Part shown: positions 46,882 to 64,000 of the stretch, one piece after another
How positions within the stretch are numbered: position 1 is the stretch's first letter
Layout: every line of letters begins with the position of its first letter
Assembly (NCBI GenBank): GCA_014905635.1
Contig: JABVCE010000032.1
Span: 248,001 to 312,000 of the forward strand
Direction of reading: 5' to 3'
DNA from: Scenedesmus sp. PABB004
Lineage: Eukaryota
DNA length: 64,000 nucleotides
The notes under the pieces: model-generated
Told to the model about the DNA's origin: nothing
Seen by the model: only the letters and a program-made list of their open reading frames with translations
Database searches by the model: none
Position numbers and translations under genes: made by a program

Positions 46882-46887
46882 ACACAC

Positions 46888-46963
<76 letters not shown>
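46882..46963. repeat. (CA)n microsatellite followed by (CG)n
   Basis: Directly visible alternating purine-pyrimidine tract. Confidence 0.95.
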
Positions 46964-51577: not shown

Positions 51578-54500
51578 TCACGGCGTCGCCGCCTCGGCCG
51601 CGCCGGCGCTGGCCGCGCCGCTCCACGGGCACTTGCCGCCAGGGGCACTCGCATCCGCCCTGCCGCCGCCGCTCGATAAGGCCGCCGCCGCGCCCACCGG
51701 CTGCGGGCGGGGCTCCGGCGCGCGCGGCGCAGGCGACGGCGGCTGCGCAGCAGTCGCGGCTGCACCACTGCGTGGCGGCGGCGCGTCTGCGCGGGGCGTG
51801 ACGGTCATCCACAGCCCCGCCACGGTGTGGATCGTTGCGCCTGGCGAAGGGGGGGGGAGGGGGGGGGGGGGGGTGGTCGGCGGGGCGGGCGGGCGGGCGG
51901 GCGGGCGGGCGGGCGGCGGGGGCTTTGCCCCCGAGCGCTCACCGGTGGTCATGCCGACCGGGGGCGCGTCGGGCGCGAGCGCAAAGTCGAAGCGCGCCGT
52001 GAGCGTCGCGAGCGCGGTGAGCGCCTCAAACAGCGCAAAGGTGTCGCCGATGCACTTGCGCCGCCCGCCGCCAAAGGGGAGGTACCGGAAGCCCTCCGTC
52101 ACCTGCAGGCGAGGGGGGGGGCGCGGGGGTTATTGGGGGAGGGGGCGCAGGTGGGGCGCGCGCAGAGCCGGGTGCTGGCGGAGTCCCCCCCCACACACAC
52201 ACCCCACCCACCCACCCACCCACCCACCCACCCCCCACACGTACGCACCTCGTTGGGCGGCGGCGCGTCGAGGGGGAAGCGCTCCGGCCTGAACGCGTCT
52301 GGGTCGTCCCAGAGCGCGGGCGAGCGGTGGAGGTTCCACACGCTGATGAAGATGTCGCTGCCCGCGGGGACGACGTACTCGTCAAACGCGTCGTCAGCCA
52401 GCGCGCTGCGGGCCCGGGGAGGGGGGGGGGTGAGAACGGCGGCCAGGTCTGTGCACAGCAGCCCCGCCGCCCCGCGCGGCCGCCAGCGACCCCTCTCCCC
52501 GCACCGGCGTATGAGCACCGGGGGCTGGGGGTAGAGGCGCATCGCCTCATTGATGACGCGCGTGGTGTAGTGCAGCTCCCGCAGCTGGTCCACGCTCGGC
52601 GCGCCGCCGCCCACCACCGCGTCGACCTTGAGAGGGGGGGGGGGGGGGCGGGGCCGCGCTGGGCGCTGGCGGGCCACGCGCCATGCCCTGGGTCTGGCCC
52701 ATGCACGCGCGCGCGCAGCGTGTGCTGCATGCACTAGCGCGCACCTCTGCGCGCACGCGCGCGACCACGCGCGGGTGCTGCGCGAGGAGGTAGAAGGTCC
52801 AGGTCAGCACCGCCGCGGTGGTCTCGTGCCCCGCGATGAGCATCGTCATCAGGTCGTCACGCAGCTGGCGGCTGCTGATCTCGTCGCCTGACAGGGGGGG
52901 GGGAGGGTGTGTGTGTGTGGGGGGAGGGACTGGGCCGGGCCAGCGCGCACGCCCTCCCCCCCTCTCACAACCCCCGCCCACCCGAGGCGACGAGGAAGCG
53001 CAGTATGCTGGGGTCGTCCTCGCTCAGGTACTCCTCGCCAAACGACGGCTGCTCCGCCTCCACCAGCGCGCGGCACTGCGCGATCAGGCCGTCCAGGCAG
53101 CCGTTGATGACCTGGGAAGGGGGGGGGCAGGTCGGCACAGCCGCTGCTGCTGCGCAACGCACTCCCCCCACCCCACCCCAGACCCCAGCGCCCCCAGCGC
53201 CGCCGCTGCGCACGCGCCTGGAGCGCCGCTGTGACGCGGCGCTGGCGCGGCACGAGCCAGCGCGCGGGGGGAAAGTTCCAGTAGGGCAGCGGCGCGGTGG
53301 AGCGGTACTCTGCCTCGCGCAGCGCGGTGTAGACGGCGGATATGACCGGGTCGTCGTGGGTGAGGGAGTCAAACTCATAGTTGAACACCGCCTGGTGCAG
53401 GGTTCAGGGTCGAAGGAGGGGCGTTGTGTGTGTGTGTGGGGGGGGGGTTGAGAGGGGGGCGGGGGTGAGGGCGCGTGCGGAGCCCCCTGCCCCCCCCACC
53501 ACACCCACGCCCCACCGCACCTTGCCGATGATGTCAAGCGCGAGGCGGCTGAAAAAGTTCTCCATCTCCACAGACTCACCCGACGCCGCCGCCGCAGACA
53601 GCCGGCCGTCGCAGCCGTGCGCCGCGCACGCGCCAAACATCGACACCTGGCGGCGCCGGCAGCGGTGGTGGCGGCGGCGCAAGCGGGGGCCGCTGCCGCT
53701 GCGGTGTGCAGCAGCCCCCTCATTCCCCGCGTCGCCGCGCCGCGGCCAGCGCTCGCTCACCATGCTGGCGACGTACTTTTTGTGCAGCGCCGGCACGATC
53801 GCGCGGCGGCGCACGCGCCAGACCTCGCCGTCCGCGGGGATGAGGCCCTGGCCCATCACAAAGTCCAGGATCTCGCTGCGCGTGGTGGGTGGGTGCGGGG
53901 GGGGGGGGGGGGTGAGGGAGGCTGCTGCTGCTCAGGCGGGCCCCTGGCCAGCCCCGGCCAGCCTCCCCCCCTCCTTGCCCCTCCCCTTGCCCCCCCCCCC
54001 CGCATGCCTGAGGATGCCCTTGGAGTACTTGTCCGCGTGCGTCGACAGCACCTGCCGCGCGTAGCCCGGGTCGCTGATGATGATGAAGGTCTTGGGCCCA
54101 AAGCTGAGGCGGAAGATCTTGCCGTAACGCAGGTACAGCTTGTACCTGCGGGGAGAGGGGACGCGGGCGCCCGCTCGCGTGGGCGCGGACGGCGGCACGC
54201 CACGCGCCCGCCGCCCGCGCGTCGCCGCCGCTCACAGCGGGACAAACACGGGCTGGCCCACGATCTCCCGGATGTCGCCTGCGGGCGCGGGGCGGAGGGG
54301 CACGGGGGCGGCGCTGCTTTGGGGCCAGCCGCTGCGGCGGCCGCGGCAGCTCGCGCCCCAGCGGGCGGCTGCGCACCCGTCGCGGTGGGCAGGCGGGACG
54401 CGGCCGCCGCGCGCCACTCGCGGCCCAGGCGCGCCAGCGCGAGCGCCAGCGCGCGGCCTGCGCCGAGCGGGGGGGGGGGAGCGGGGCGTCAGCAGCCGCC

Positions 54501-54866
54501 GCAGCGCTGCCGCTGCTGCCGCCAGCCGGCGCTGCTGCCGCTGCCGCCTGCAGCAAGCACGGCCCCCTGCGCACCGACGCCGACGGGGTCCTGGGCCAGG
54601 AACTTGCGCACGGGGCGGGTCAGCTTCTCCTTCGTCGACCCCGCGTCGGTGAACTCGCCCGAGAGGATGCGCGCCGACAGCTCGTCCGCCGCGGCCGCGT
54701 CCTCCTCGGCGTCGGCGGGCCGCTCATCGTCCCGGGGCGCCGCGCACGGCGCAATGCGGGCCCGACCGCGCCGCGGCGGGGCTGGGAAGAGCGGCGCGGC
54801 GCCGGGCGGCCGCGGCACCGGCGCCGCGTGCCGCCCCGAGGCGAGGCCGGGCCGGCGCGCCAGCAT
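51578..54866 (-). CDS. CYP97A: Cytochrome P450 CYP97A carotenoid beta-ring hydroxylase
   Basis: [66 protein letters not shown], heme motif [11 protein letters not shown]. Confidence 0.95.
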
Positions 54867-56242: not shown

Positions 56243-56412
56243 CGGCGCCGGGCGCGGTGGTGGCGGGGCGCACTGCCACTCTAGCGCAAGGCGCCGCGGC
56301 CTTGAGCGGCCCTTGGCCGATGCCGGGTGCATCCAGGCCTGCGGAGCCAACCTGCGCGCATGCCGGCGCCGCCGGCGCCGCCGCCGCACTGCAGTGCGTG
56401 GCGGCGGCAGCG

Positions 56413-56631
56413 ATGGCCGACAGCGCCGCGTGGCAGGCGGTCAAGCCGTACGTCAACGGCGGCGCAGCGGCATGATGCGACCTGCATCATCCAGCCCATC
56501 GACATGGTCAAGGTCCGCCTGCAGCTCGGCGCGACCGGCGGCCCGGTGAGCGCGGCGGCGGGCGGGCGGCGCGCGACCCGGCCTGCGCGCCCCTCGCGCC
56601 TCCTCTCCGCGCAGCTGGGCGTGGCGCGCGG
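56413..56631 (+). pseudogene. Inverted 5' fragment of DTC (third copy)
   Basis: MADSAAWQAVKPYVNGG, then frameshifts; ends shortly after the first intron (LGVAR). Confidence 0.85.
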
Positions 56632-57055: not shown

Positions 57056-60000
57056 ATGGCCCCCGGGCCCCCCAGCGGCCGCGCGGCGTCCCTCACGGCG
57101 CTCCTGGCCGTCTCCCTGCTCTTCCTCGGCACCGCACGGGGCCAGATGCCCCCCCAGTGCAGCACTGCCACCACCAACGTCACCACGCGCTGCGCGGCCC
57201 CCTGCGCCGTCTGCCTGAGCTCCCCCGGGCCCGCACGGCTCAGGACGTGCGTGTGCTGCAAGGCCGGCTTCGTCCCGGCCGCCACGGGCAAGTGCCGCGC
57301 TTGTGGGGTCGGCGAGTTCTCAGCGGCTCCTGGCGCCACCAAGTGCGCCCGCTGCCGCGACGGCCTCACGACCACGGGCAAGAACGCAACGTCCTGCAAC
57401 GGTGAGTGGTCATAGGGAGTGGCAGGGGCTGGGGGCTGGCTTTGTGCTTGGTTCTGCCTGCCGTCATCCTCACCTCCCCCTCCCCCGCCGCCTCTCTCAT
57501 CCCCCCCCCCCCGCCACACACACACAGCTTGCCCGGCCGGCACCCAGCTGCGCCTGGTCAAGCGCGACGGGCGCGACGTGCAAGTCTGCCGCCCCTGCCC
57601 AGTTGGGCGCACGTCGCTCGGGGGGCCCACCGCAACCAGCCCCCGCTGCACGCCCTGCCCGCGCGGCCGCACGACGGCCGGCGACGACAGGACTGCCTGC
57701 CCCGCCTGCCAGCCCGGCTTTGGCGGCAGCGCGTGCGGCCGCTGCGCCGCCAACACGTACGGCGTGGGCGGTGTCGGCGCCGCGTGCCTGGCGTGCCCTT
57801 TTGATACCACCTCGGCGCCCGGGTCGTCGGCCGCCACCGCGTGCGTGCGGAGGGACATCCCTGGCGTGTCGCCCTCGCCCGTGTCGCCCTCGCCGGCGCC
57901 GTCTGTTGCCTCGCCCAGCCCGGCGCCGCAGCCGGCCTTCACCGCCACGCTGGCGATCAAGGCGTCTGGCGCCTGCAACGCCTCGCTGCACGACGCGTTT
58001 GTCAACGCCACGCGCACGGCCATCCTGGCGCGCACACCCACCAGCGAGCAGGGGTCGGTTGCCGTCACCAAGGGCGCCTGCACGACGTCCCCCGGGCGCC
58101 ACCTGCTGGGGCGCTGGCTGCTGGCGGCGGCGTCGTCCACCTACGACGTGCAGGCGTTGTCCACGTCCGACGGCGGCGCAAGCGGCATCACGCAGACGGT
58201 GCAGGACCCGGGGCTGCAGACGGCGCTGGACAACACGGCTGCCCAGTTTGGGTCTGATGTGCTCAATCTTGGTAAGTTGGCTGTGAATTGAGGCACGCAG
58301 CCTGCTCCAGAAGCTAGGGCTAATTGAAACCACCTGCCCTATGCAGATGTTAAGGTGGAAGACCCTACTCCCAGTCCCAGGCCAGTCTCTTCACCTTCAC
58401 CTGCGCCGATGACATCACCCTCGCCGGGGCCGGCCGCATCGCCCTCGCCTGCACCGGCGGCGTCGCCCTCGCCTGCGCCGGCCGCATCGCCCTCGCCTAA
58501 CCCGAACGCATCGCCCTCGCCGGCGCCGGCTGCATCGCCCTCCCCTGCGCCGGCCGCATCGCCCGCGCCTGCGCCAACCCCGACTCCTACGCCGTTCTTC
58601 CCTCCTATTGTCCCTCCACTGGTGAGTTTTGTACAGTTACAAATGTGCTGGGTTACATAGGCACTACTAACAAACCACACGCTGCAGGTGGCGAATGGGG
58701 GTGCCTGCACCACCGACACTGCCTGCGAGAGCGGCCTGTGCGCAGACACCAACAACGACAACACCAAGGACACCTGCAAGGTTGGTTGCGTGCGCGTGCG
58801 CGGTAGCAGCGCTGCGTGCACTTGTCGCACATACCGCACCGCAAGCGAGCAGTGAGAGCTGGCATCCAACACCGCTACCACCACCACCACCTCGCCCACA
58901 CTCTCTCTCTTCCTGACCTGCCCCCGTCCGTGCGCTCGATGCCGCCCGCCCACAACGCGCGTGCGGTGCAGGTGGCAAACGGGGGTGCCTGCACCACCGA
59001 CACTGCCTGCGGGAGCGGCCTGTGCGCAGACACCAACAACGACAACACCAAGGACACCTGCAAGGTTGGTTGCGTGCGCGTGCGCGGTAGCAGCGCTGCG
59101 TGCACTTGTCGCACGTGCCACACCGCAAGCGAGCAGTGAGAGCTGGCATCCAACACCGCTACCACCACCACCACCTCGCCCACACTCTCTCTCTTCCTGA
59201 CCTGCCCCCGTCCGTGCGCTCGACACCGTCGCCCACATCGCGCGTGCGGTGCAGGTGGCAAACGGGGGTGCCTGCACCACCGACACTGCCTGCGGGAGCG
59301 GCCTGTGCGCAGACACCAACAACGACAACACCAAGGACACCTGCAAGGTTGGTTGCGTGCGCGTGCGCGGTAGCAGCGCTGCGTGCACTTGTCGCACATA
59401 CCGCACCGCAAGCGAGCAGTGAGAGCTGGCATCCAACACCGCTACCACCACCACCACCTCGCCCACACTCTCTCTCTTCCTGACCTGCCCCCGTCCGTGC
59501 GCTCGATGCCGCCCGCCCACAACGCGCGTGCGGTGCAGGTGGCAAACGGGGGTGCCTGCACCACCGACACTGCCTGCGGGAGCGGCCTGTGCGCAGACAC
59601 CAACAACGACAACACCAAGGACACCTGCAAGGTTGGTTGCGTGCGCGTGCGCGGTAGCAGCGCTGCGTGCACTTGTCGCACGTGCCACACCGCAAGCGAG
59701 CAGTGAGAGCTGGCATCCAACACCGCTACCACCACCACCACCTCGCCCACACTCTCTCTCTTCCTGACCTGCCCCCGTCCGTGCGCTCGATGCCTCCCGC
59801 CCACAACGCGCGTGCGGTGCAGGTGGCAAACGGGGGTGCCTGCACCACCGACACTGCCTGCGGGAGCGGCCTGTGCGCAGACACCAACAACGACAACACC
59901 AAGGACACCTGCAAGGTTGGTTGCGTGCGCGTGCGCGGTAGCAGCGCTGCGTGCACTTGTCGCACGTGCCGCACCGCAAGCGAGCAGTGAGAGCTGGCAT

Positions 60001-63000
60001 CCAACACCGCTACCACCACCACCACCTCGCCCACACTCTCTCTCTTCCTGACCTGCCCCCGTCCGTGCGCTCGATGCCTCCCGCCCACAACGCGCGTGCG
60101 GTGCAGGTGGCAAACGGGGGTGCCTGCACCACCGACACTGCCTGCGGGAGCGGCCTGTGCGCAGACACCAACAACGACAACACCAAGGACACCTGCAAGG
60201 TTGGTTGCGTGCGCGTGCGCGGTAGCAGCGCTGCGTGCACTTGTCGCACGTGCCGCACCGCAAGCGAGCAGTGAGAGCTGGCATCCAACACCGCTACCAC
60301 CACCACCACCTCGCCCACACTCTCTCTCTGACCTGCCCCCGTCCGTGCGCTCGATGCCGCCCGCCCACAACGCGCGTGCGGTGCAGGTGGCAAACGGGGG
60401 TGCCTGCACCACCGACACTGCCTGCGGGAGCGGCCTGTGCGCAGACACCAACAACGACAACACCAAGGACACCTGCAAGGTTGGTTGCGTGCGCGTGCGC
60501 GGTAGCAGCGCTGCGTGCACTTGTCGCACGTGCCGCACCGCAAGCGAGCAGTGAGAGCTGGCATCCAACACCGCTACCACCACCACCACCTCGCCCACAC
60601 TCTCTCTCTTCCTGACCTGCCCCCGTCCGTGCGCTCGACACCGCCCGCCCACAACGCGCGTGCGGTGCAGGTGGCAAACGGGGGTGCCTGCACCACCGAC
60701 ACTGCCTGCGGGAGCGGCCTGTGCGCAGACACCAACAACGACAACACCAAGGACACCTGCAAGGTTGGTTGCGTGCGCGTGCGCGGTAGCAGCGCTGCGT
60801 GCACTTGTCGCACGTGCCGCACCGCAAGCGAGCAGTGAGAGCTGGCATCCAACACCGCTACCACCACCACCACCTCGCCCACACTCTCTCTCTGACCTGC
60901 CCCCGTCCGTGCGCTCGATGCCGCCCGCCCACAACGCGCGTGCGGTGCAGGTGGCAAACGGGGGTGCCTGCACCACCGACACTGCCTGCGGGAGCGGCCT
61001 GTGCGCAGACACCAACAACGACAACACCAAGGACACCTGCAAGGTTGGTTGCGTGCGCGTGCGCGGTAGCAGCGCTGCGTGCACTTGTCGCACGTGCCGC
61101 ACCGCAAGCGAGCAGTGAGAGCTGGCATCCAACACCGCTACCACCACCACCACCTCGCCCACACTCTCTCTCTTCCTGACCTGCCCCCGTCCGTGCGCTC
61201 GATGCCTCCCGCCCACAACGCGCGTGCGGTGCAGGTGGCAAACGGGGGTGCCTGCACCACCGACACTGCCTGCGGGAGCGGCCTGTGCGCAGACACCAAC
61301 AACGACAACACCAAGGACACCTGCAAGGTTGGTTGCGTGCGCGTGCGCGGTAGCAGCGCTGCGTGCACTTGTCGCACATACCGCACCGCAAGCGAGCAGC
61401 GACAGCTGGCATCCAACACTGCCACCAACACCTCCTCACCCACACTCTCTCTCTCCCTGACCTGCCCCCGTCCGTGCGCTCGATGCCGCCCGCCCACAAC
61501 GCGCGTGCGGTGCAGGTGGCAAACGGGGGTGCCTGCACCACCGACACTGCCTGCGAGAGCGGCCTGTGCGCAGACACCAACAACGACAACACCAAGGACA
61601 CCTGCAAGGTTGGTTGCGTGCGCGTGCGCGGTAGCAGCGCTGCGTGCACTTGTCGCACGTGCCGCACCGCAAGCGAGCAGCGACAGCTGGCATCCAACAC
61701 TGCCACCAACACCTCCTCACCCACACTCTCTCTCTTCCTGACCTGCCCCCGTCCGTGCGCTCGATGCCTCCCGCCCACAACGCGCGTGCGGTGCAGGTGG
61801 CAAACGGGGGTGCCTGCACCACCGACACTGCCTGCGGGAGCGGCCTGTGCGCAGACACCAACAACGACAACACCAAGGACACCTGCAAGGTTGGTTGCGT
61901 GCGCGTGCGCTGTAGCAGCGCTGCGTGCACTTGTCGCACGTGCCGCACCGCAAGCGAGCAGCGACAGCTGGCATCCAACACCGCCACCACCACCACCTCG
62001 CCCACACTCTCTCTCTGACCTGCCCCCGTCCGTGTGCTTGATGCCGCCCGCCCACAACGCGCGTGCGGTGCAGGTGGCAAACGAGGGTGCCTGCACCACC
62101 GACACTGCCTGCGGGAGCGGCCTGTGCGCAGACACCAACAACGACAACACCAAGGACACCTGCAAGGTTGGTTGCGTGCGCATGCGCGGTAGCAGCGCTG
62201 CGTGCACTTGTCGCACGTGCCGCACCGCAAGCGAGCAGCGACAGCTGGCATCCAACACTGCCACCAACACCTCCTCACCCACACTCTCTCTCTTCCTGAC
62301 CTGCCCCCGTCCGTGCGCTCGACACCGTCGCCCACAACGCGCGTGCGGTGCAGGTGGCAAACGGGGGTGCCTGCACCACCGACACTGCCTGCGAGAGCGG
62401 CCTGTGCGCAGACACCAACAACGACAACACCAAGGACACCTGCAAGGTTGGTTGCGTGCGCGTGCGCGGTAGCAGCGCTGCGTGCACTTGTCGCACGTGC
62501 CGCACCGCAAGCGAGCAGCGACAGCTGGCATCCAACACTGCCACCAACACCTCCTCACCCACACTCTCTCTCTTCCTGACCTGCCCCCGTCCGTGCGCTC
62601 GACACCGTCGCCCACAACGCGCGTGCGGTGCAGGTGGCAAACGGGGGTGCCTGCACCACCGACACTGCCTGCGAGAGCGGCCTGTGCGCAGACACCAACA
62701 ACGACAACACCAAGGACACCTGCAAGGTTGGTTGCGTGCGCGTGCGCGGTAGCAGCGCTGCGTGCACTTGTCGCACGTGCCGCACCGCAAGCGAGCAGCG
62801 ACAGCTGGCATCCAACACCGCCACCAACACCTCCTCACCCACACTCTCTCTCTTCCTGACCTGCCCCCGTCCGTGCGCTCGACACCGTCGCCCACAACGC
62901 GCGTGCGGTGCAGGTGGCAAACGGGGGTGCCTGCACCACCGACACTGCCTGCGGGAGCGGCCTGTGCGCAGACACCAACAACGACAACACCAAGGACACC

Positions 63001-64000
63001 TGCAAGGTTGGTTGCGTGCGCGTGCGCGGTAGCAGCGCTGCGTGCACTTGTCGCACGTGCCGCACCGCAAGCGAGCAGTGAGAGCTGGCATCCAACACCG
63101 CTACCACCACCACCACCTCGCCCACACTCTCTCTCTTCCTGACCTGCCCCCGTCCGTGCGCTCGATGCCGCCCGCCCACAACGCGCGTGCGGTGCAGGTG
63201 GCAAACGGGGGTGCCTGCACCACCGACACTGCCTGCGGGAGCGGCCTGTGCGCAGACACCAACAACGACAACACCAAGGACACCTGCAAGGTTGGTTGCG
63301 TGCGCGTGCGCGGTAGCAGCGCTGCGTGCACTTGTCGCACGTGCCACACCGCAAGCGAGCAGCGACAGCTGGCATCCAACACTGCCACCAACACCTCCTC
63401 ACCCACACTCTCTCTCTTCCTGACCTGCCCCCGTCCGTGCGCTCGACACCGTCGCCCACAACGCGCGTGCGGTGCAGGTGGCAAACGGGGGTGCCTGCAC
63501 CACCGACACTGCCTGCGAGAGCGGCCTGTGCGCAGACACCAACAACGACAACACCAAGGACACCTGCAAGGTTGGTTGCGTGCGCGTGCGCGGTAGCAGC
63601 GCTGCGTGCACTTGTCGCACGTGCCGCACCGCAAGCGAGCAGCGACAGCTGGCATCCAACACCGCCACCAACACCTCCTCACCCACACTCTCTCTCTTCC
63701 TGACCTGCCCCCGTCCGTGCGCTCGATGCCGCCCGCCCACAACGCGCGTGCGGTGCAGGTGGCAAACGGGGGTGCCTGCACCACCGACACTGCCTGCGAG
63801 AGCGGCCTGTGCGCAGACACCAACAACGACAACACCAAGGACACCTGCAAGGTTGGTTGCGTGCGCGTGCGCGGTAGCAGCGCTGCGTGCACTTGTCGCA
63901 CGTGCCGCACCGCAAGCGAGCAGCGACAGCTGGCATCCAACACTGCCACCAACACCTCCTCACCCACACTCTCTCTCTTCCTGACCTGCCCCCGTCCGTG
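57056..64000 (+). CDS. Secreted Cys-rich/Ser-Pro wall-type protein with tandem-exon repeat region; continues beyond the window
   Basis: Exons 57056-57401, 57528-58271, 58347-58621, then 93-nt phase-0 exons from 58688. Signal peptide, CxxC..G (TNFR/GCC2-GCC3-like) repeats, RHLL/RWLL motif, (SPSPAPAA)n. Confidence 0.85.
58688..64000 (+). repeat. Tandem array of 277-284-bp exon+intron units, 19 exons in window
   Basis: Exon starts 58688, 58972, 59255, 59539, 59823, 60107, 60387, 60671, 60951, 61235, 61516, 61797, 62074, 62354, 62634, 62914, 63198, 63478, 63759; each TGCAG|GTGGC...TGCAAG|GTTGGT. Confidence 0.97.

Follow-up and report, generated by a model that had tools for sequence, protein, structure and literature searches.

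A tandem array of 93-nt exon and intron cassettes in the green alga Scenedesmus sp. PABB004, candidate 3' part of a gene for an extracellular or wall glycoprotein

Described cassette arrays and algal wall glycoproteins

That repeat proteins can grow by joint duplication of an exon and its intron is already established as a principle, the 90-bp-exon arrays of Tetrahymena being an example. The locus described here lies in a stretch of 64,000 nucleotides of Scenedesmus sp. PABB004, hereafter the window, and shares with these arrays an intragenic tandem unit of one short exon of fixed length and one short intron, visible at the nucleotide level, a single intron phase throughout and exons that each contribute about 30 residues to a repeat protein. 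Exon numbers vary in Tetrahymena, which the paper on that system ascribes to unequal crossing-over. The Tetrahymena introns are in phase 2, with a codon shared across the junction, and the modules are LRRs, whereas the algal array is in phase 0 and its modules are beads with four cysteines. Moreover, thousands of such genes are documented by RNA-seq and Ka/Ks in Tetrahymena, while the alga offers one array locus of this kind in 64 kb, known from sequence alone; a retrotransposon association is reported in the former and none is seen at the algal array.

In the spider flagelliform silk gene and the human LPA kringle-IV type 2 region, tandem exon and intron units undergo homogenisation that includes the introns, protein length follows from copy number, and copy-number polymorphism has been measured. 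These are animal genes, with units of kilobases that are far larger than those of the alga. The exons of the Schistosoma micro-exon genes (MEGs) are symmetric, and their skipping is documented to give in-frame protein variants; for the algal array, skipping is a mechanism put forward in a preliminary description of the sequence and would operate by analogy. MEGs also build secreted proteins from many short exons, as the algal locus may do, but their exons do not form tandem cassettes of near-identical sequence; the abstract of PMC10526429 gives exons of 3-81 bp and long introns that reach 5 kb.

As regards the putative product, the chlorophycean hydroxyproline-rich wall glycoproteins (HRGPs), among them GP1 and the pherophorins, have in common with it a Ser/Pro/Ala rod with a short internal repeat, globular parts that contain Cys and, as far as its sequence suggests, a signal-peptide-like start. 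Chaotrope-soluble glycoproteins of >150 kDa are reported from Scenedesmus walls (PMC11839794). No pherophorin or other HRGP-specific Pfam domain was found in exons 1-3 or in the bead at E<=1.

Given that the principle is known elsewhere, the value of this locus would lie mainly in annotation and algal cell-wall biology, not in a new mechanism. If transcripts confirm the model, it would be a clean and young case of a repeat protein growing by symmetric exon and intron duplication, in a thinly annotated green alga genome of ~78% GC for which 7,092 genes are listed in the part of PMC12571836 available to us. It would also illustrate how coding sequence in such genomes can lie concealed in satellite-like arrays, where annotation pipelines and repeat masking miss it.

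Architecture of the locus

We consider it probable, at roughly two in three, that the array forms the 3' portion of a single plus-strand protein-coding gene of this chlorophycean alga, with cassettes read in frame and a product that is an extracellular or wall glycoprotein (Table 1). The gene would start at 57056 and encode a signal-peptide-like N-terminus (MAPGPPSGRAASLTALLAVSLLFLGTARG...), ephrin-receptor-like Cys repeats, a domain of ~120 aa, a Ser/Pro/Ala rod and at least 19 cassettes.

Table 1. Features of the proposed gene, in positions of the window. G14 and E14 give the residue at bead position 14.
Feature	Position	Strand	Remarks
Exon 1	57056..57401	+	first ATG of frame; phase-1 end, G|GTGAGT
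Intron 1	57402..57527	+	126 nt, GTGAGT...CACACAG
Exon 2	57528..58271	+	further Cys-rich CxxC repeats, short Ser-Pro stretch, ~120-aa domain
Intron 2	58272..58346	+	75 nt, GTAAGT...CTAAT...TGCAG
Exon 3	58347..58621	+	Ser/Pro/Ala-rich rod; ends in phase 0 at CTG|GTGAGT
Intron 3	58622..58687	+	66 nt, AT-richer, GTGAGT...TACTAAC...CTGCAG
Array	58683..64000	+	exon and intron cassettes, unit 277-284 nt, 18.9 copies
Array exon 1	58688..58780	+	E14; two synonymous differences from other copies
Array intron 1 (representative)	58781..58971	+	191 nt; donor AAG|GTTGGT; acceptor GTGCAG|; CTGAC 56 nt from the 3' splice site, the stretch from there to the acceptor free of AG
Array exon 2	58972..59064	+	G14
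Array exon 3	59255..59347	+	G14
Array exon 4	59539..59631	+	G14
Array exon 5	59823..59915	+	G14
Array exon 6	60107..60199	+	G14
Array exon 7	60387..60479	+	G14
Array exon 8	60671..60763	+	G14
Array exon 9	60951..61043	+	G14
Array exon 10	61235..61327	+	G14
Array exon 11	61516..61608	+	E14
Array exon 12	61797..61889	+	G14
Array exon 13	62074..62166	+	G14, plus G4E
Array exon 14	62354..62446	+	E14
Array exon 15	62634..62726	+	E14
Array exon 16	62914..63006	+	G14
Array exon 17	63198..63290	+	G14
Array exon 18	63478..63570	+	E14
Array exon 19	63759..63851	+	E14; then 149 nt of the next intron to the window end

In the predicted N-terminus, the n-region is basic, the core is hydrophobic and the c-region has small residues. 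The Cys-rich repeat that follows it in exon 1 aligns to Pfam PF07699 (Ephrin_rec_like) with E=8e-5 and 22.8 bits, the gathering score being 23.1. Exon 2 also aligns to this family below the cut-off (E=0.0025, 18 bits), and its sole database relative carries PF07699. The ~120-aa domain of exon 2 received no family in the Pfam search and leads only in the Atlas comparison, and AF2 modelling gave a pLDDT of 40. With exon 2 as query, no protein from this locus was found in the 135-433 aa or the 434-2000 aa class, which, with the negative search for the bead given below, indicates that the gene as modelled is absent from public protein sets. Of the 91 residues encoded by exon 3, 35 are P, 17 are S and 18 are A; the exon thus specifies a Ser-Pro-rich rod as in chlorophycean HRGPs, and it contains a 24-bp (8-aa) tandem repeat of 6.8 copies at 58413-58575; rods of this type undergo hydroxylation and O-glycosylation in the wall proteins of Chlorophyceae, and the present one may be modified likewise.

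The upstream introns are canonical, with GTGAGT or GTAAGT donors, TACTAAC or CTAAT branch sequences and CAG acceptors, and the codon split by intron 1 (G|CT, Ala) keeps the frame. The phase-0 junctions of the array and the in-frame connection to the Ser-Pro exon ending at 58621, both claimed in the preliminary description, hold throughout: joining the three upstream and 19 array exons from the ATG gives 3,132 nt and 1,044 codons with 0 stops.

What resembles a satellite (Tandem Repeats Finder: period 284, 96% matches, 1% indels, score 9677) is indeed, as had been claimed, an array of cassettes, each with one whole exon-like segment and one whole intron-like spacer, head to tail, as in tandem exon duplication. 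All 19 segments measure exactly 93 nt, are symmetric (phase 0-0) and in frame with the upstream exons, and are preceded directly by GCAG and followed directly by GTTGGTTG in every copy, so that the flanks CAG| and |GTTGGT are invariant. The 18 complete spacers span 184-191 nt, in agreement with the ~185-190 nt first estimated, and the window end truncates the 19th. A branch point CCTGAC had been named for every unit; its core CTGAC is present in 18/18 complete spacers, the full hexamer in only 15, and the first AG 3' of CTGAC is the proposed acceptor in all 18. As spacers vary in length and the units are not multiples of three, the frame is kept only if the spacers are spliced out.

The findings described above suggest a model in which a symmetric phase-0 cassette, made of the 93-nt exon and a GT-AG intron of ~188 nt, was multiplied by in-register tandem duplication of the exon along with its intron, with ongoing sequence exchange between cassettes by unequal crossing-over or gene conversion. 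Since the exon length is divisible by three in each cassette, the gain, loss or skipping of cassettes would preserve the frame, and the product, which is most likely a long glycoprotein of the cell wall or the extracellular space, could vary in length. Considerably more tentative is the proposal that a lineage-restricted and previously undescribed four-Cys bead of 31 residues is set in copy number by in-register unequal crossing-over and by in-frame skipping at the RNA level, such that fibre length changes both genetically and post-transcriptionally; we hold this to be possible rather than probable. As a whole, the interpretation given in the preliminary description is partly supported.

The encoded bead

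Each array exon encodes a bead of 31 aa, VANGGACTTDTAC[G/E]SGLCADTNNDNTK, with four cysteines spaced C-x5-C-x4-C-x11-C, which presumably form two disulfides in a secreted product, and a second half rich in Asn, Asp and Thr. At position 14, 13 of the beads have G and the other 6 have E. The bead peptide had been predicted correctly in this respect, and G4E in copy 13 and the two synonymous changes in copy 1 had been missed.

The bead gave 0 matches at E<=0.001 among 1.84 billion representative proteins, and this search revealed no counterpart of the Cys-bead array in chlorophycean wall glycoproteins. A Cys-bead module of this kind would add to the small set of building blocks known from algal wall proteins. 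There are resemblances, all below family thresholds: the best PDB sequence match aligns bead residues 4-20 (G-x-x-C-x5-C-x-S-G-x-C-x-D) to prokineticin Bv8 with E=1.2, Pfam PF11410 scores E=0.026 and 14.9 bits, under its cut-off of 22, and the nearest Atlas clusters are Dickkopf_N-like families of Myxococcota (0.79-0.81). The Pfam search reported no match of the bead to Dickkopf_N, and no family above its curated cut-off. In favour of a coding array, the motif GxxCx5CxSGxCxD is found again in unrelated Cys-rich proteins, and the upstream Cys at 5-residue spacing, left free in the search pattern, recurs in several independent metagenome proteins.

In this regard, bead residues 1-20 share motif and Cys spacing with the Cys-rich modules of prokineticin, colipase, Dickkopf_N and Myxococcota-like type (G-x-C-x2-D-x2-C-x-S-G-x-C). 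These modules, however, continue with ...D-G-x-C-C and further cysteines, to a total of 6-10 Cys per domain. Knottins have six cysteines per domain and the colipase fold ten, counts that a bead with four does not fit. Modelled by AF2 from its sequence alone, the bead reaches a mean pLDDT of 55.9, which does not suffice for a fold search.

Coding signals, splice sites and alternative readings

Codon usage was compared with that of the neighbouring CYP97A3 gene as CAI reference. In the frame imposed by exon 3 the array exon reaches a CAI of 0.58, close to exon 1 (0.57) and exon 2 (0.59), whereas the remaining five frames of the segment give 0.17-0.32. GC by codon position is 0.45/0.61/0.87 in the array exon, with a GC3 similar to those of exon 1 (0.59/0.73/0.92) and exon 2 (0.64/0.69/0.90), and is flat in the spacer (0.58/0.76/0.68). 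These statistics favour the frame and strand first proposed for the array.

The main alternative is that the array is a non-coding or formerly coding satellite, derived from a recently amplified terminal exon and intron, in which case the mRNA would end before the array or skip most of it, and the exon look of the copies would be due to youth and homogenisation. In line with this notion, divergence between units is low overall, neither the bead nor exon 2 retrieves a homologue or an annotated protein, and retention of intron 3 leads to a stop at 58658-58660, 13 codons past exon 3 (ORF 58328..58660). The array acceptors are also weak by local standards: scored with a matrix built from 15 local introns, they reach 1.8-4.2 bits, against a leave-one-out range of -0.0 to 14.2 and a median of 7.4 for real sites. 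The ~16 nt just before their AG are G-rich and not C-rich, and the branch-like CTGAC stands 55-56 nt from the acceptor, compared with ~18 and 32 nt in two neighbouring introns.

Variation among the units points the other way, with limited power. Pairs of units differ on average by 0.82% in their exons and by 3.34% in their introns, a 4-fold lower exon diversity. Variable columns number 4/93 in exons and 26/191 in introns (p=0.022), and variable events 4/93 and 21/191 (Fisher p=0.075), the latter an underpowered comparison of few events; 2 of the 4 exon changes are non-synonymous. As first observed, the indels are confined to introns, no array exon having any, but the argument drawn from this is weak, since the 8 indel columns go back to 3 separate events (of 3, 4 and 1 bp) and chance alone would keep these out of the exons with p=0.30. 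Also against a satellite speak the exact exon length, the splice dinucleotides kept on either side and the uninterrupted frame in 19/19 copies, the codon usage and GC3 in the frame set by exon 3, the textbook signals of intron 3 directed into the array, and the plus strand free of TGTAA after 16812, from exon 3 to the window end included. On balance, we regard the satellite as unlikely and the coding array as the better account.

A second question concerns the 3' end of the exon. The proposed donor AAG|GTTGGT scores 6.4 bits, within the leave-one-out range of real donors (1.0-11.1), and is the top-scoring phase-compatible GT in the unit, although its T at +3 is seen in 0/15 local donors. Further phase-0 GTs follow 9 nt (TGC|GTGCGC) and 15 nt (CGC|GTGCGC) downstream, and either might be the actual end of the exon. 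Cassettes spliced at these sites would encode beads of 34 or 36 aa with five cysteines, possibly alternating with the 93-nt form, and would be told apart by junction peptides: ...DTCK-VANGG... is predicted for the 93-nt exon and ...DTCKVGC-VANGG... or ...DTCKVGCVR-VANGG... for the alternative donors. GTGCGC is the commonest donor hexamer of the neighbouring gene (3/12 introns, with GTGCGG or GTGCGT in 3 more), each of the three candidate donors keeps the frame, and the first ~18 intron codons show good usage in frame 0, sliding windows at offsets 18-21 reaching a CAI of 0.62. The downstream sites score, however, only 2.8 and 4.1 bits, carry C at -1, where 14/15 local donors have G, leave one of five cysteines unpaired and, in the case of the +15 site, are altered to ATGCGC in copy 13. 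A longer exon is accordingly rather improbable, and the 93-nt exon is retained.

Tandem arrays are a classic site of assembly error, and the present one runs past the window end, so we considered that its copy number or whole extent might be an artefact of repeat expansion or collapse in a long-read assembly. The 18 complete units comprise 16 distinct sequences, in which indels and substitutions are shared, linked and mosaic, neither random nor identical. Four gametes occur at 108/210 pairs of informative sites, and past recombination among units is thus visible. This pattern, together with an assembly of 77 contigs and a listed value of 1300, presumably the N50 in kb (accessible part of PMC12571836), makes an artefact very unlikely.

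Finally, assignment of the repeat to a minus-strand gene, as an unspliced long ORF or antisense exons, is scarcely credible: it could appeal to a stop-free frame of 556 aa at 58339-60009, to minus-strand TGTAA motifs at 58637 and 58653 and to an antisense shadow-frame window across the acceptor with a CAI of 0.625, by which codon statistics by themselves do not decide the strand, but stop-free frames are expected on this A-poor strand (AT skew +0.09 to +0.16), the ORF shifts frame between units and ends at changes of unit length, its Arg/Cys/Gly-rich product belongs to no real family (sole Pfam match PF06564, E=1.7e-4, no single stretch passing), and the three antisense frames of the array exon have a CAI of 0.18-0.32.

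Anatomy of the array and of the gene model upstream

The 3' end of the window is occupied by a single tandem array, which Tandem Repeats Finder follows from 58683 to the window end with a period of 284 (18.9 copies, 96% matches, 1% indels, score 9677). When located by their conserved start, 19 open segments are found at a spacing of 277-284 nt, every one of them exactly 93 nt long (19/19) and flanked by GCAG on the 5' side and GTTGGTTG on the 3' side in all 19. The array extends beyond the window, and the assembled sequence thus gives at least 19 units. In all copies the segment translates into VANGGACTTDTAC[G/E]SGLCADTNNDNTKDTCK, a 31-residue peptide with four cysteines that we call the bead; the variable position is Gly in 13 copies and Glu in 6. 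In addition, copy 13 (numbered in + strand order) carries G4E and copy 1 shows two synonymous differences. The tryptic peptide predicted from the bead is VANGGACTTDTAC[G/E]SGLCADTNNDNTK.

The 18 complete spacers measure 184-191 nt. All contain CTGAC (CCTGAC in 15 of the 18), and the interval from this motif to the acceptor is free of AG in 18/18. The unit lengths are not divisible by three and, when the spacers are read in the exon frame, 11 of the 18 contain a stop, the remaining 7 shifting the frame because they are 187 or 188 nt long. These observations agree, in every particular that could be checked, with the cassette of acceptor, 93-nt exon, donor, intron and branch-like motif set out in the preliminary description, and the G/E position of its peptide is recovered as well. 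No copy of the bead was detected in the window outside the array (tblastn, E<=10), nor were further long-period tandem arrays found in window positions 1-58700.

Upstream, on the same strand, three exons can be modeled. Intron 3, which separates them from the array, is 66 nt long and AT-richer, with TACTAAC placed 18 nt upstream of the CAG that adjoins the first array exon at 58688. Once joined, exons 1-3 and the 19 array exons yield 3,132 nt, or 1,044 codons, without a stop and with the frame still open at the window end; the phase-0, in-frame connection proposed earlier for the exon ending at 58621 therefore holds across a 22-exon join. The array repeat starts 5 nt upstream of the first array exon and, therefore, the duplicated unit brought its own acceptor. 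Intron 3 also contains TTACA twice, at 58637 and 58653 (TGTAA when the minus strand is read), which probably reflects its composition; on the + strand, no TGTAA occurs in the window downstream of 16812.

Window coordinates of the gene model, its internal features and the neighboring gene
Feature	Position	Strand	Remarks
CYP97A3-type carotenoid hydroxylase gene	51581-54866	-	13 exons; translation exactly that of P0002
First ATG of the frame	57056	+	gene model
Exon 1	57056-57401	+	ends G/GTGAGT, phase 1
Exon 2	57528-58271	+	ends G/GTAAGT, phase 1
~120-aa domain without family	57902-58270	+	exon 2 residues 125-247, after the Cys-rich repeats
Exon 3	58347-58621	+	ends CTG/GTGAGT, phase 0
Intra-exonic repeat in exon 3	58413-58575	+	24-bp (8-codon, ASPSPAPA-like) unit, 6.8 copies, 81% matches
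Extra phase-0 GT sites	59074 and 59080	+	each array intron has them 9 and 15 nt from its start; listed here for one unit

Coding potential and splice signals

A coding exon array appears to be the best explanation of the repeat, to which we give roughly two chances in three. The case is built from signals internal to the sequence. The length of the array exon is a multiple of three, and its best-scoring frame is the one imposed by the phase of exon 3, each having a chance of 1 in 3. With the neighboring CYP97A3 coding sequence as a codon reference independent of the array gene, the codon adaptation index (CAI) of the array exon reaches 0.58 in the exon-3 frame, compared with 0.57 in exon 1, 0.59 in exon 2 and 0.17-0.32 in the segment's remaining five frames. 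GC content by codon position (0.45/0.61/0.87) rises as in exons 1 and 2, and is flat in the spacer. An antisense shadow-frame window, however, attains a CAI of 0.625; codon statistics therefore favor the frame but cannot alone fix the strand, and the assignment of the array to the + strand would follow from the upstream gene model. Minus-strand ORFs over the array were rejected, their Pfam matches being sub-threshold and driven by composition.

On average, two units diverge by 0.82% over the exon and by 3.34% over the spacer. Counted as mutational events, variation amounts to 4 in the 93 exon columns against 21 in the 191 spacer columns (Fisher p=0.075), and counted by columns it gives p=0.022, a value in which linked indel columns enter separately. 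In this regard, the earlier remark placing every indel in an intron is correct as an observation; as an argument it involves three events, for which the chance probability is 0.30.

Splice signals were scored with a rough position weight matrix built from 15 local introns, with leave-one-out ranges. The proposed donor scores 6.4 bits, within the range of 1.0-11.1, and has a T at +3 that is shared by 0 of the 15 local introns. The proposed acceptors reach 1.8-4.2 bits, where the leave-one-out median is 7.4; a C-rich tract lies 25-50 nt upstream of them and the final ~16 nt are G-rich. It is possible that each array exon ends instead at one of the GT sites located 9 or 15 nt downstream, in which case the beads would have five cysteines. 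Both sites are in phase 0 and come with GTGCGC, a hexamer favored by the host alga, but they have C at -1 and score just 2.8 and 4.1 bits, and we rank them below the donor that closes the 93-nt exon.

Exchange between units and the predicted product

Among the 18 complete units there are 16 distinct sequences, whose variants are shared blockwise: two spacer core types, two tail types, and indels of 3, 4 and 1 bp. These blocks are combined in a mosaic manner, with four gametes at 108 of 210 pairs of informative biallelic sites. Mosaics of this kind are the mark of units that have exchanged sequence repeatedly, whether through unequal crossing-over or gene conversion, and contradict random read errors or artificially duplicated identical copies as the source of the pattern.

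These features allow us to propose a model in which, within a gene for a secreted glycoprotein, one exon and its downstream intron underwent tandem duplication followed by in-register expansion. With a symmetric exon of 31 codons (phase 0-0), each cassette would add one bead, and expansion or contraction would always preserve the frame. Donors and acceptors are near-identical and, therefore, any donor could in principle be joined in frame to any acceptor that follows it, so that cassettes could also be skipped. The earlier suggestion that protein length is tuned genetically or by exon skipping seems plausible.

The predicted N-terminus, MAPGPPSGRAASLTALLAVSLLFLGTARG, resembles a signal peptide as judged by eye. 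It is followed by ephrin-like Cys repeats, the ~120-aa stretch, a Ser/Pro/Ala rod encoded by exon 3 (35 P, 17 S and 18 A among 91 aa) and the beads. Against Pfam Ephrin_rec_like, whose cut-off is 23.1 bits, the Cys-rich repeats of exon 1 fall just short (22.8 bits) and those of exon 2 reach 18 bits. Searches for homologues of exon 2 returned, in the 'longer' class, one protein from Tribonema minus that matches the ephrin-like part only, and none in the 'near' class. In the Atlas, the ~120-aa domain scores 0.90 to an unnamed eukaryotic cluster and 0.78 to a SEA-domain cluster, values to be taken as leads only, and the AF2 pLDDT of 40.1 for the whole exon 2 is too poor for a reading of the fold. 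The product would be a long extracellular molecule in which a Cys-rich N-terminal head is followed by a rod carrying glycans and by small disulfide-bonded beads arranged in a string. Glycoproteins of >150 kDa are reported from Scenedesmus walls (PMC11839794), and the wall may be a plausible home for such a product.

Homogenized exon+intron units that set protein length are known from spider flagelliform silk and human LPA KIV-2, and the micro-exon genes of Schistosoma are a known case of variation through the skipping of symmetric exons. The closest documented parallel to the array is the LRR gene family of Tetrahymena. In this ciliate, thousands of LRR genes include tandemly arrayed exons of exactly 90 bp with short phase-2 introns, whereas the present exons are 93 nt long and in phase 0; the Tetrahymena arrays are ascribed to unequal crossing-over, with support from RNA-seq and Ka/Ks (PMC6564038). 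A limited phrase search of the literature for green-algal precedents (tandem exon duplication; repeated exons and tandem repeats in Chlamydomonas) found none, which is weak evidence that such arrays are absent from green algae. The array matters chiefly for annotating the genomes of GC-rich algae and for the biology of algal walls.

Possible relatives of the bead and genomic setting

Bead residues 4-20 form the motif G-x-x-C-x5-C-x-S-G-x-C-x-D, alignable (E=1.2) with the N-terminal part of prokineticin Bv8; in Pfam, the bead matches PF11410 below threshold (E=0.026). Its nearest Atlas clusters, Myxococcota Cys-rich and Dickkopf_N-like proteins (0.79-0.81), are leads only, and the AF2 pLDDT of a single bead (55.9) is uninformative on its fold. 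With phmmer, no homologue was retrieved at E<=0.001 among 1.84 billion representative proteins.

In metagenome DNA, a 12-codon degenerate pattern of the bead matched 0 loci and a looser 9-codon pattern matched 107. No tandem array was present in the best 80 of these 107, each with a single match, and tblastn re-scoring of all 107 found just short motif matches (<=20 aa). The pattern covered the second half of the motif, and several independent matches kept the upstream Cys at identical spacing although it was not required. Translation of seven loci gave, in six cases, Cys-rich proteins encoded by one long ORF on contigs that are GC-rich and apparently bacterial; the seventh (L074) looks like a chance match. 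Pfam searches on three of these seven returned Kelch, Disintegrin and a weak DUF7107. Neither the Bv8, PF11410 and Atlas likenesses nor the metagenome matches show family membership; combined, they make an accidental open frame less likely.

The proteins of five loci (L003:3-2627 (+), which has Kelch repeats, L009, L031, L097 and L013), all large products of long single ORFs on GC-rich, apparently bacterial contigs, contain repeated Cys modules of the form G-x-x-C-x5-C-x-S-G-F/L-C-x-D-G-V-C-C, barely classified by Pfam (DUF7107, E=0.0013).

P0002, which the neighboring hydroxylase gene encodes, is CYP97A3 of Scenedesmus sp. PABB004 per NCBI; in this gene model the 12 introns measure 90-146 nt and 2 of them start with GC rather than GT. 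The alga is tabulated in PMC12571836 with 39.8 Mb in 77 contigs, 78.5% GC and 7,092 genes, and the GC content of the window (66-81%) is consistent with that figure. No database protein was found from the array locus, which may be because annotation is thin. Just 5' of the ATG, at ~56400-56560 (+), lies a short segment similar to the N-terminal end of mitochondrial carriers (Pfam Mito_carr; E=0.017 over 21 residues, short of the cut-off), with no sign of the remainder of such a gene between ~56560 and 57056. Elsewhere in the window, C-rich low-complexity sequence forms dense tandem repeats at 2092-2580, and 46882-46949 is an (AC)34 microsatellite.
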